DNA of 50,710 nt. It comes from a virus (Duplodnaviria > Heunggongvirae > Uroviricota > Caudoviricetes). The translations under genes and the position numbers were made by a program. The DNA lies in IMG/VR virus record IMGVR_UViG_2877285697_000009; one strand, written 5' to 3'. The notes beneath the pieces were generated by a model. The model was not told where the DNA came from. It did no database searches and saw only the letters and a program-made list of their open reading frames with translations. Shown here one piece after another: positions 33,558 to 35,409 of the stretch (its first letter is position 1; every line of letters begins with the position of its first letter).

Positions 33558-34019
33558 GAATCCTCCCGGCCTGGATAATATTGTGAGTAAAATGAGGAGC
33601 GGGCTGAAGTCCGGAAGTTACAGGACAATGGCAGAAGATAGACAACAGCCCGCAATACGAAAAAGGCCGCGCTATTGCGCAGAGTGATTACTGTCGGATA
33701 TTATTCGCCAGCTGAAATATTACTTCACGTTTTGTTGTTTATTCCTTGCCGCCCGCGTCTCCCAGCGCGGGATTTTTTTGTCCATAAGAAAGCCCCTCCG
33801 GAGAGGGGCTGGAGAGTGGCGCTATGTGCCATTGCATGGTGCCGGGTGCCTCCCGGTGAGTTCAGTATCAGCACCTGAACCCGCACAGAAAGGATAAGGG
33901 TCGGTGACAAAACACCAGTTGCTGATTGCCCCTCCGCACAGGGGGATTCACCATGCCAGTTTCTTTTAACAAACTCCCCGCAAACCAGACAACAGTCAAC
34001 CGCCTGAATTGTGAGACAT

Positions 34020-34052
34020 TTAAAAAAAAGCCCGCAAAAGCGAGCCAGGGAA
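34020..34052 (-). terminator. Terminator-like hairpin downstream of the tRNA cluster
   Basis: Minus-strand CTCGCTTTTGCGGGC followed by TTTTTTTT; immediately 3' of tRNA-Arg(TCT). Confidence 0.4.
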
Positions 34053-34060
34053 AATAAGTG

Positions 34061-34137
34061 TGGCGCGTTCTACTGTATTCGAACCAGTGACCGATTGCTT
34101 AGAAGGCAATTGCTCTGTCCGGCTGAGCTAACAACGC
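34061..34137 (-). tRNA. tRNA-Arg (anticodon TCT)
   Basis: Cloverleaf by eye: acceptor GCGTTGT/AGAACGC (1 mismatch), perfect D and anticodon stems, loop CTTCTAA, T-loop TTCGAAT, 3' GCCA. One mismatch in the T-stem. Confidence 0.7.
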
Positions 34138-34153
34138 AGGATACAGATAATGA

Positions 34154-34227
34154 ACCGCCTTCGGGGACTTGAACCCCGCGCAGCCAGCTTCGAAGGCTGG
34201 CGCTCTTTCCTGATGAACTAATGGCGG
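34154..34227 (-). tRNA. tRNA-Arg (anticodon TCG)
   Basis: Acceptor CCGCCAT/AAGGCGG (1 mismatch), anticodon stem CCAGC/GCTGG with loop CTTCGAA, T-arm CGGGG-TTCAAGT-CCCCG; no encoded CCA. Confidence 0.65.
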
Positions 34228-34234
34228 TATGTGA

Positions 34235-34310
34235 TGGTGGCCCTTGCTGGATTTGAACCAGCGACCTGGCGATTATGAGTCGCTCGCTCTCACCACTGAG
34301 CTAAAGGGCC
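34235..34310 (-). tRNA. ileZ: tRNA-Ile2-like (anticodon CAT; could be Met)
   Basis: 76 nt GGCCCTTTAGCTCAGTGGTGAGAGCGAGCGACTCATAATCGCCAGGTCGCTGGTTCAAATCCAGCAAGGGCCACCA, very similar to E. coli ileX; part of the ileZ-argN-argO-type cluster. Confidence 0.85.
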
Positions 34311-34359
34311 GGAAGCAGAATAATAATGGTGCGTAATTAATTCTGCAATCTCATCCGTT

Positions 34360-35409
34360 TCAAACGATTAAATTCTGAACTTCCCTGACTGTCTGCTCAA
34401 AACGTCCGGTCTCCAGCTCAACACCAATCGCACGACGCCCCAGTGCCATCGCCGCTTTTACCGTTGAACCCGACCCCATGAAAAAATCCGCAACCAGCTC
34501 ACCAGGACGACTACTTGCGCTGATTATCTGCTGCAGCATTTCTGCCGGTTTTTCGCACGGATGTTTCCCTGGATAGTACTGCACCGGTTTATGCGTCCAC
34601 ACATCCGTGTACGGCACCTGCGCCGTCACGCCAAAATACCGCCGCAGATGCTTATATTCACTCTGCAGTTCCGTATACTGCCGGTTCAGCTCACTGTATG
34701 TGCTGACCAGTTGGTAATGGGACTTTTCCAGTTCTCCCCGCTGATGTTTCTCTTCTGCCACCCGGGCAAACAGCGACTGTAATTTCAGATAATCGCTTTC
34801 GTTCGGTAGCTGCCACTGACTGGCACTGAACCAGTGCGACACCATGTTTTTCTTTCCTGTGGCATCTGCAATCTGTTTTGCCGTTATCCCCAGGGCCGCG
34901 CGCGCATCACGAAAGTAAGAAATCAGCGGGGCCATCACATGCTGTTTCAGTGCACTGCCTTTCGCCGCATACCCGGCATCTTTCGGACGATACGGCCCCT
35001 GATAATGTTCCGCGAACAGAATGCGCTCTGTGGCGGGGAAATACGCCCGCAGGCTTTCCTTGTTGCATCCGTTCCAGTGTCCGGACGGCTTCGCCCAGAT
35101 AATATGGTTCAGCACACTGAAGCGTTCACGCATCATGATTTCGATATCAGATGCCAGGCGATGGCCACAGAACAGGTAAAGACTTCCGGCAGGTTTCAGC
35201 ACCCGCCAGAACTGCGCCAGACACAGGTCCAGCCACTTCAGGTAATCATCGTCGCCCTTCCACTGGTTATCCCAGCCCTCAGGCTTCACTTTAAAGTACG
35301 GCGGGTCCGTGACTATCAGGTCAACAGAATTTTCGGGTAACGACCGGATAAATTCCAGGCAGTCGGCGTTGATTAACTCACAACTGGATATTTTTACAGT
35401 ATTAGTCAT
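34360..35409 (-). CDS. DNA methyltransferase (beta-class, DPPY motif; N6-adenine or N4-cytosine)
   Basis: 349 aa: motif IV DPPY near the N-terminus (SVDLIVTDPPYF), motif I FxGxG near the C-terminus (DFFMGSGST); central about 100-aa insertion. Confidence 0.8.
   Translation of the reverse strand: MTNTVKISSCELINADCLEFIRSLPENSVDLIVTDPPYFKVKPEGWDNQWKGDDDYLKWLDLCLAQFWRVLKPAGSLYLFCGHRLASDIEIMMRERFSVLNHIIWAKPSGHWNGCNKESLRAYFPATERILFAEHYQGPYRPKDAGYAAKGSALKQHVMAPLISYFRDARAALGITAKQIADATGKKNMVSHWFSASQWQLPNESDYLKLQSLFARVAEEKHQRGELEKSHYQLVSTYSELNRQYTELQSEYKHLRRYFGVTAQVPYTDVWTHKPVQYYPGKHPCEKPAEMLQQIISASSRPGELVADFFMGSGSTVKAAMALGRRAIGVELETGRFEQTVREVQNLIV

Follow-up and report, generated by a model that had tools for sequence, protein, structure and literature searches.

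When the gene order that surrounds stxAB in Shiga toxin (Stx)-converting phages is met in a phage without the toxin, it has to be asked whether a toxin cassette was lost there or never arrived. This question is raised by a stretch of 50,710 nucleotides of viral DNA (Caudoviricetes; IMG/VR record IMGVR_UViG_2877285697_000009), the whole of which is called the window here and in which a first-pass annotation had described a Stx-phage-like late region (Q, tRNA cluster, nanS-p, lysis cassette) without toxin genes. The region can be read with high confidence as the part of a mosaic lambdoid prophage that serves late-gene control and lysis, in which the cargo point between the tRNA gene argO and a conserved small RNA gene is unoccupied; in the recent history of the lineage, stx was most probably never present at this junction.

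The region under study extends from about 38000 to 27500 on the minus strand, which carries nearly all genes of this lambdoid prophage. Across the region examined, the window is 100% identical to NCBI record CP026827.1 (assembly GCA_002949935.1), and the calls of Q and of a 65-aa reading frame are those of this record. Domains were assigned by Pfam, tRNAs by ARAGORN and Rfam, small RNA (sRNA) families by Rfam and terminators by scanning and folding; sigma-70 promoters were scanned for with a cut-off of at least 9 of 12 consensus positions. The occurrence of the junction was surveyed with three 161-nt probes in 5426 complete E. coli genomes, where a match had to cover at least 80% of the probe in one place. 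The coordinates of the features are collected in Table 1.

Table 1. Features of the late region, in the order of transcription on the minus strand (positions are those of the window)
Feature	Position	Strand	Evidence
DUF968/HNH-like gene upstream of Q	36372..37367	minus	PF06147, E 4.8e-81
Late antiterminator Q, 126 aa	35974..36354	minus	PF06530 Phage_antitermQ, E 1.6e-52; call in CP026827.1
tR'-like intrinsic terminator	35878..35905	minus	G+C-rich hairpin, 8-bp stem, then T7 (35905-35885); scan, sequence, fold
65-aa open reading frame	35561..35758	minus	Gene call in CP026827.1
Terminator of the 65-aa frame	35574-35557	minus	Terminator scan
N6/N4 DNA methyltransferase	34360..35409	minus	PF01555, E 2.7e-43
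tRNA with CAT anticodon, ileZ-type	34235..34310	minus	ARAGORN; Rfam tRNA, 72.5 bits
tRNA-Arg(TCG), argN-type	34152..34228	minus	ARAGORN; Rfam, 48.3 bits
tRNA-Arg(TCT), argO-type	34061..34137	minus	ARAGORN; Rfam, 53.4 bits
argO trailer with intrinsic terminator (stem 34046-34029, then T-run); left border of slot	34019..34060	minus	Scan; fold z-score -3.4
Cargo (moron) insertion point, empty here	34019..34026	minus	blastn breakpoints, junction sequences
STnc100-family sRNA gene, homologue of EcOnc27 (Sakai Sp5)	33780..34014	minus	Rfam model span 33985-33780
3' intrinsic terminator of STnc100	33810-33791	minus	Terminator scan
Opposite-strand intrinsic terminator (33752-33771, then T-run), abutting the STnc100 terminator	33752..33779	plus	Terminator scan, fold
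Sense segment ending in a third terminator (33682-33667 and T-run)	33659..33767	minus	Terminator scan; alignment to Sp4
nanS-p (sialate O-acetylesterase type), 5' fragment	31846..33557	minus	Pfam DUF1737, SASA, truncated DUF6645
IS600 (IS3 family), 1263 bp	30583..31845	minus	99.2-99.5% to PGAP-annotated IS600 elements
nanS-p, 3' fragment	30330..30582	minus	In silico restoration
DUF826 gene and lysis cassette	27527..30149	minus	PF05696, PF04971, PF07041, PF00959, PF03245
P21-type holin	29630..29415	minus	Pfam
DUF1327	29410..29066	minus	Pfam
Lysozyme	29015..28482	minus	Pfam
Rz	28000..27527	minus	Pfam

Searches with tblastn (Stx1A/B, Stx2A/B) and blastn (whole stx1 and stx2 cassettes) against all 50.7 kb gave chance-level matches only, except for one blastn match, to the Q-proximal leader segment that had been included in the stx1 probe. 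Judged by stxA and stxB, the window is thus not a Stx-converting phage; its layout, in which Q precedes the toxin site and the lysis genes follow it, is the lambdoid one. The first-pass annotation was correct in finding no stx in the window and in its order of Q, tR'-like terminator, methyltransferase, tRNAs, gap, nanS-p and lysis genes, all of which are present on the minus strand, and the locus is indeed that of stx. The likeness to Stx phages reflects true homology and did not arise by chance.

The place of the cargo was located by alignment with the Stx2a phage Stx2_14040 (LC567818). Window 34400-34023 corresponds to 4483-4861 of that locus (3' end of the methylase gene, three tRNAs and 37 nt past argO) and window 34018-33464 to 6197-6760, a block that begins 42 nt past the stop codon of stx2B and reaches into yjhS/nanS-p. 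Between the two blocks, Stx2_14040 has 1335 bp (a 53-nt leader, stx2A, stx2B and a 41-nt trailer) as against about 4 nt in the window. The same breakpoints were obtained with Sp5, the Stx2a prophage of CB6837, TerB-cargo prophages and the phage PhiR5_1, and the slot of related prophages was found to hold stx2AB (1335 bp), TerB/DUF3927 (~760 bp) or nothing. A search for deletion scars by alignment with the flanks of Stx phages, Sp5 included, had been proposed earlier; the alignments returned the breakpoints at about 34019-34026, and the stx searches found no remnant of the cassette. On the left, the slot is bordered by GGCTCGCTTTTGCGGGC, followed by a T-run. On the right, a TTAAAT-like hexamer, 4-8 variable nucleotides and CACAATTCAG were found in every context seen (empty, stx2, stx1, TerB cargo, no upstream tRNAs); the hexamer reads TGTAAT in Stx2 phages and the final motif CTCAATTCAG in Sp15.

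The 503 bp between argO and nanS-p (34060-33558) had been taken as a whole for the toxin slot. They contain no gene called in CP026827.1, and the longest open reading frame (ORF) is of 67 aa with a TTG start, which agrees with the earlier statement that no ORF of toxin size is present. However, about 461 bp of this stretch (34018-33558) form a conserved module that is also found in Stx1 and Stx2 phages, downstream of stxB; the spacer from stxB to nanS-p in Stx phages measures 486-511 bp and is homologous to it. The gap had also been said to hold only hairpin and terminator-like structures. Terminators are indeed there, but the hairpins belong to an sRNA gene of the STnc100 family. Since the gap is mostly a conserved sRNA module, it is not a deletion scar.

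The STnc100 gene matches RF02076 over model positions 1-206 of 206, with 143.2 bits (gathering score 47) and an E value of 1e-33. The family scores 159 bits in Stx2_14040 and 208 bits in Sp5, in both cases downstream of stx2B; phi296, a phage without stx, has a copy that scores 158 bits. A consensus fold of nine homologues has 44 pairs, four of them with compensatory changes, and comprises a helix that closes the structure (GCAUGGUG/CACCAUGC), hairpins inside it, three in number, and the terminator, the centre and the 5' region being variable. In prophage Sp5 of E. coli O157:H7 Sakai, EcOnc27 overlaps an STnc100 prediction and was placed just downstream of stx2B (PMC12711010); northern blots gave sizes of 235 and 247 nt, and the 247-nt species was destabilised without hfq (PMC4104026, Table S2). 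The STnc100-type RNA of homologues has been found in vesicles from Shiga toxin-producing strains of E. coli as well, and it has already been documented that STnc100/PasD is linked to the esterase gene (bioRxiv 10.64898/2026.05.13.724894). In the window, the 5' end probably lies near the conserved CACAATTCAG at 34014, with TTAAAT before it. Measured from CACAATTCAG, the terminator ends after ~230 nt, which fits the northern sizes of EcOnc27; hence, the right border of the cargo slot is probably the -10 element and the start of the STnc100 transcript. In some stx-free prophages, two tandem, diverged STnc100-type copies are found between argO and nanS-p (E. coli O18:H1 CFSAN067215, locus 2884-3600; JKHS016, anchors 5468 and 5936).

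The remainder of the module has counterparts in Sakai Sp4, where Hfq was bound on both strands of the homologous DNA and EcOnc05 and EcOnc08/21 were mapped experimentally (PMC4104026). Downstream of PR', Tree et al. (2014) recognised a moron site, at which Sp3, 4, 5, 9, 10, 11, 15 and 17 have convergent sRNAs that are bound by Hfq (PMC4104026). Sakai Hfq peaks were transferred to window coordinates with an assumed shift of 142 nt. On this basis and by alignment, the sense RNA EcOnc05 would correspond to 33767-33659, and the antisense RNA EcOnc08/21 to 33563-33635 and the first codons of nanS-p. The plus-strand terminator next to that of STnc100 is a probable 3' end of an antisense RNA overlapping the start of nanS-p, comparable to EcOnc08/21. 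No Rfam match to the anti-sRNAs AsxR (RF02703) and AgvB (RF02702) was obtained in 33540-34070 up to E = 10, with AsxR scoring 88 bits in Sp5 as a control, and the window differs in sequence from Sp5 at the AsxR position; the antisense partner here would therefore be a different, unnamed sequence. A special fold of the antisense and downstream segments was considered and discarded, as the z-scores against shuffled sequences were -1.25 and -0.34 and the terminator hairpins alone are supported. Over 5 kb, the terminator scan gave 12 terminator-like sites, where 5.6 +/- 2.1 were expected.

In E. coli, this locus is most often found with its junction empty. The window's own sequence, in which argO leads directly to STnc100, was found in 1018 of the 5426 genomes, compared with 828 for argO joined to TerB/DUF3927 cargo and 592 for argO joined to stx2A. 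The empty junction is present in ST131, avian, commensal and O157:H7 strains, and the window's junction sequence is identical to that of the stx-free prophage of E. coli JKHS016. In many more genomes, the match to the empty-junction probe starts at position 75, exactly at the junction, and this shows that different upstream modules can adjoin the same border; PhiR5_1 is an example.

The prophage is a mosaic whose seam lies at the junction, and the relatives of its two arms differ. The left arm is 95.9% identical to the Stx2a prophage of CB6837 over 38000-34023 and 94.8% identical to Stx2_14040 over 37382-34023, both matches ending exactly at the junction (34023). Closer matches, at 97.0-97.3%, were obtained over 1954 nt (35980-34027) with stx-free prophages, among them those of JKHS016 and ZH063; these two were inspected, and both are without stx. 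The right arm, 34026-31846, is 98.9% identical to the prophage of UPEC-245U, which carries TerB cargo, and only about 74% identical to Stx2 phages. The STnc100 variant is 99% identical to that of the non-Stx phage PhiR5_1, as compared with 70-78% in Stx2 phages.

Three other histories may be set against the reading of a junction that was never occupied by stx in recent times. A recent clean deletion of the stx2AB cassette from a Stx2 phage, with the junction as its scar, would agree with the left arm, which resembles Stx2a prophages until exactly the stx2 point, with the several Stx2 prophages that are among the best matches over 20 kb in complete E. coli genomes, and with short similar strings (TATATCTG, TAATCTG) that flank the stx2 cassette and could support its excision. 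Such a deletion is nevertheless very unlikely, because the cassette left no remnant, the junction is identical to that of a stx-free prophage and occurs in more than a thousand genomes, the right arm and STnc100 are far from those of Stx2 phages, and the left arm has the closer relatives named above. Moreover, the 40 nt past argO are the 'cactt...ccctgg' variant of empty prophages, while all Stx2 phages examined have 'tattta...accagg'. It is likewise improbable that the TerB/DUF3927 pair once occupied the slot and was lost by slippage or recombination between the flanking T-runs, although UPEC-245U, which has this pair in its slot, matches the right arm at 97.7-98.9% identity (34026-31846 and 30583-29635), and the restored NanS-p is identical to the UPEC-245U esterase. 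In UPEC-245U, CCTTTTTT adjoins the cargo on its left side and TTTTTAAAT on its right side, so that a deletion between the T-runs would yield the CTTTTTTTTAAAT that is observed. The four nucleotides from TTAAAT to CACAATTCAG, however, are 'gtct' as in empty prophages and not 'acct' as in UPEC-245U and PhiR5_1; in its left arm, UPEC-245U reaches an identity of only 90-92% and has a truncated methylase gene; and JKHS016 has the identical empty junction. Taken together, these three observations indicate that no deletion is needed to account for the mosaic, a simple homologous exchange within the 5' part of STnc100, which is conserved, being enough. As for a superficial convergence of gene order around a meaningless spacer, nothing but the lack of long ORFs in the gap speaks for it, and its probability is negligible in view of the 74-99% nucleotide identity to Stx phages and lambdoid prophages, the full-length Rfam match in the gap and the enrichment of terminators.

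Hence, it was concluded from the sequences compared that the junction descends from the widespread empty form and that its flanks were put together by ordinary homologous exchange, for which the tRNAs and STnc100 offered conserved sequence. Several points weigh against the absence of stx from the recent history of the lineage, or against the details of the transcript map. Up to the junction, Stx2a prophages still share 95-96% identity with the left arm, and there may have been an older exchange with a stx-carrying relative, the mosaicism of lambdoid phages erasing such history. In the sigma-70 scan, no match of at least 9/12 was found at the right place on the minus strand for PR', nor any for STnc100, where TTAAAT is a -10-like hexamer with no convincing -35; since a complete promoter was not found, the start of STnc100 was placed by homologues. 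The positions given for EcOnc05 and EcOnc08/21 depend on the 142-nt shift, which was itself inferred from stx2A, AsxR and ECs1088. As to the choice left by the first-pass annotation between a stx-negative relative and a site where a toxin cassette was lost or never acquired, the relationship is borne out by the common locus and by early, Q, methylase and tRNA parts that are 95-96% identical to Stx2a prophages, whereas a loss is disfavoured by the missing remnant, the widespread empty junction and the closest relatives of both flanks, which are without stx. It had also been anticipated that the region might align colinearly with non-Stx lambdoid phages and show no trace of stx flanks; the alignment is colinear, but the sequences called stx flanks are present, as part of a shared backbone.

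A more general proposal is tentative, with less than even chances of being correct. The T-run of the argO terminator and the TTAAAT-N4-CACAATTCAG border may be a discrete cassette-exchange point, at which stx2AB, TerB/DUF3927 and nothing at all are interchangeable and where cargo moves by recombination in the tRNA and sRNA flanks or by T-run slippage. The window would then be a double recombinant, with a left arm like that of a Stx2 phage, a right arm like that of a TerB-cargo prophage and an empty junction.

With regard to the cargo itself, it was observed that stx2 and the unrelated TerB/DUF3927 cargo start with a similar string of ~11 nt (RTATCYGCGCC; ATATCTGCGCC, GTATCCGCGCC) after the T-run of the argO terminator, at 4862-4875, 2880-2893 and 13915-13928 of the fetched loci L001, L008 and L012, respectively, which hints at a shared cassette border. 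Another cargo variant was seen in E. coli STEC1585 (locus 5750-6085), where the TerB/DUF3927 cargo is separated from nanS-p by iraM, an anti-adapter gene on the opposite strand. The 29 extra nucleotides at the junction of phi296 were considered as a remnant of known cargo and rejected, as they had no match in the fetched loci beyond the shared TTAAAT motif.

Upstream of the slot, the tR'-like hairpin is situated ~70 nt past the stop codon of Q, and the PR' promoter presumably sits between the two. Homologues of the 65-aa ORF are present in Stx2 and stx-free prophages, where they are annotated as 'hypothetical protein'. The tRNA with the CAT anticodon is called Met by ARAGORN, while its homologues in RefSeq are ileZ/tRNA-Ile; ileZ, argN and argO precede the cargo point in the same order as in Sakai Sp4 and Sp5. 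The limited collection of literature that was searched turned up nothing on ileZ/argN/argO together with stx. In argO, two substitutions (aatCcagtaCaac to aatAcagtaGaac) distinguish the window from all homologues compared, disrupting one pair of the T-stem and one of the acceptor stem, and the Rfam score compares with 68-70 bits in the homologues; argO is possibly a decaying tRNA gene.

Downstream of the slot, the nanS-p claimed in the first-pass annotation exists as an esterase gene starting at 33557. It is not intact, the IS600 that interrupts it at 31845/31846 having been overlooked. The ORF (33557..31833, 574 aa) runs into IS600 and stops at 31833; the protein is cut after residue 570, and DUF6645 keeps 68 of 119 profile positions. 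An intact NanS-p has DUF1737, SASA and DUF6645-type domains in one ORF of ~650 aa, which the gene in its present form does not provide. The insertion element has inverted repeats beginning with TGAGGT, a 3-bp target duplication (TGC) and transposase ORFs with HTH_Tnp_1 and rve domains. When IS600 and one TGC were removed in silico, a 653-aa ORF was obtained that has the features of an intact NanS-p and is 100% identical to the esterase of UPEC-245U, for which reason the insertion is probably recent. By its predicted product, the nanS-p of this prophage is inactivated by IS600, and this insertion and the argO substitutions together suggest a decaying prophage. The occurrence of nanS-p in non-Stx prophages has already been documented (PMC10462455, PMC8065619). 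Just downstream of Rz, on the minus strand at ~26608-26934, a 108-aa ORF with a TonB_C domain match was noted, which may be a cargo gene.

From what is known of lambda and Stx phages, it would be expected that transcription from PR' ends at tR' in the lysogen and that nanS-p and the lysis genes are held silent by the later terminators (after the small ORF, argO and STnc100, and at 33682-33667), while the tRNAs and sRNAs could be made independently, as are the homologous RNAs in O157:H7 Sakai. Upon induction, Q would make RNA polymerase resistant to terminators and the whole string would be read through, so that any cargo in the slot, stx for example, would be co-expressed with lysis.

The region is an ordinary late region of a non-Stx lambdoid prophage, of a kind already known, and is of little importance beyond its correct annotation. 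The Stx-phage-like order of Q, tRNAs, nanS-p and lysis genes is not in itself a sign that a phage once had the toxin. For annotation, the insertion point of stx is only a few bases wide and is found left of the conserved STnc100 gene, and it is as an sRNA locus that the non-coding DNA before nanS-p should be annotated.

Other parts of the window point in different directions, as is typical of a lambdoid mosaic. The morphogenesis region (1-25000) is lambda/phage-21-like, with the non-Stx phages PhiR5_1 and PhiR12 as nearest relatives (~95%), and the early/Q/methylase region is nearest to Stx2a prophages and to stx-free prophages of clinical E. coli. At 41432-41620 on the minus strand, the Rfam families C4 antisense RNA (81.5 bits) and isrK (59.3 bits), immunity RNAs of the P1/P7 type, were both matched above the gathering score. 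The pair lies inside or just upstream of a long Rha/antirepressor-type ORF (40829..41980), and the same pair is found upstream of ant in phi296 (147-329).

Among known systems, Sp4 of O157:H7 Sakai, which is not a Stx prophage, is very similar in the slot between argO1 and ECs_1088, where ileZ-argN-argO, a terminator, an STnc100-type RNA, further terminators and a nanS-p-type gene follow one another without cargo, with 96% identity over 521 aligned positions that include the junction. It differs in the central variable loop of STnc100, which is 15 nt shorter in Sp4, in having an AraC-family regulator gene in place of the methylase gene, and in a nanS-p that is only ~78% identical. Stx2a phages of the Stx2_14040, 1720a-02 and CB6837 type share the DUF968 gene, Q, the small ORF, the methylase gene and the three tRNAs with the window at 95-96%, followed by STnc100, nanS-p and lysis genes in the same order; unlike the window, they have the 1335-bp stx2AB cassette in the slot and an STnc100/nanS-p arm of about 74% identity. 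The DUF968 gene is found at the same place in stx-free prophages as well.

The prophage of UPEC-245U/190328 shares the STnc100-nanS-p-DUF826 arm at 97.7-98.9%, but has TerB-family and DUF3927 genes in the slot, a truncated methylase gene and a nanS-p without IS600. JKHS016 differs by a second STnc100-type copy before nanS-p, and hence has two CACAATTCAG anchors. In ZH063, the STnc100-type region (5422-5863) is followed directly by the holin gene, which indicates that nanS-p is itself an optional module. Finally, the stx-negative podophages vB_EcoP_phi296 and TL-2011a, relatives of the Stx2 phage 86, also have the tRNAs, STnc100 and NanS without stx and show colinearity with the window along 94% of a 1-kb probe, with an identity of 88%; they differ in the 29 extra nucleotides at the junction, in a different Q region and in retaining only a remnant of the methylase gene.

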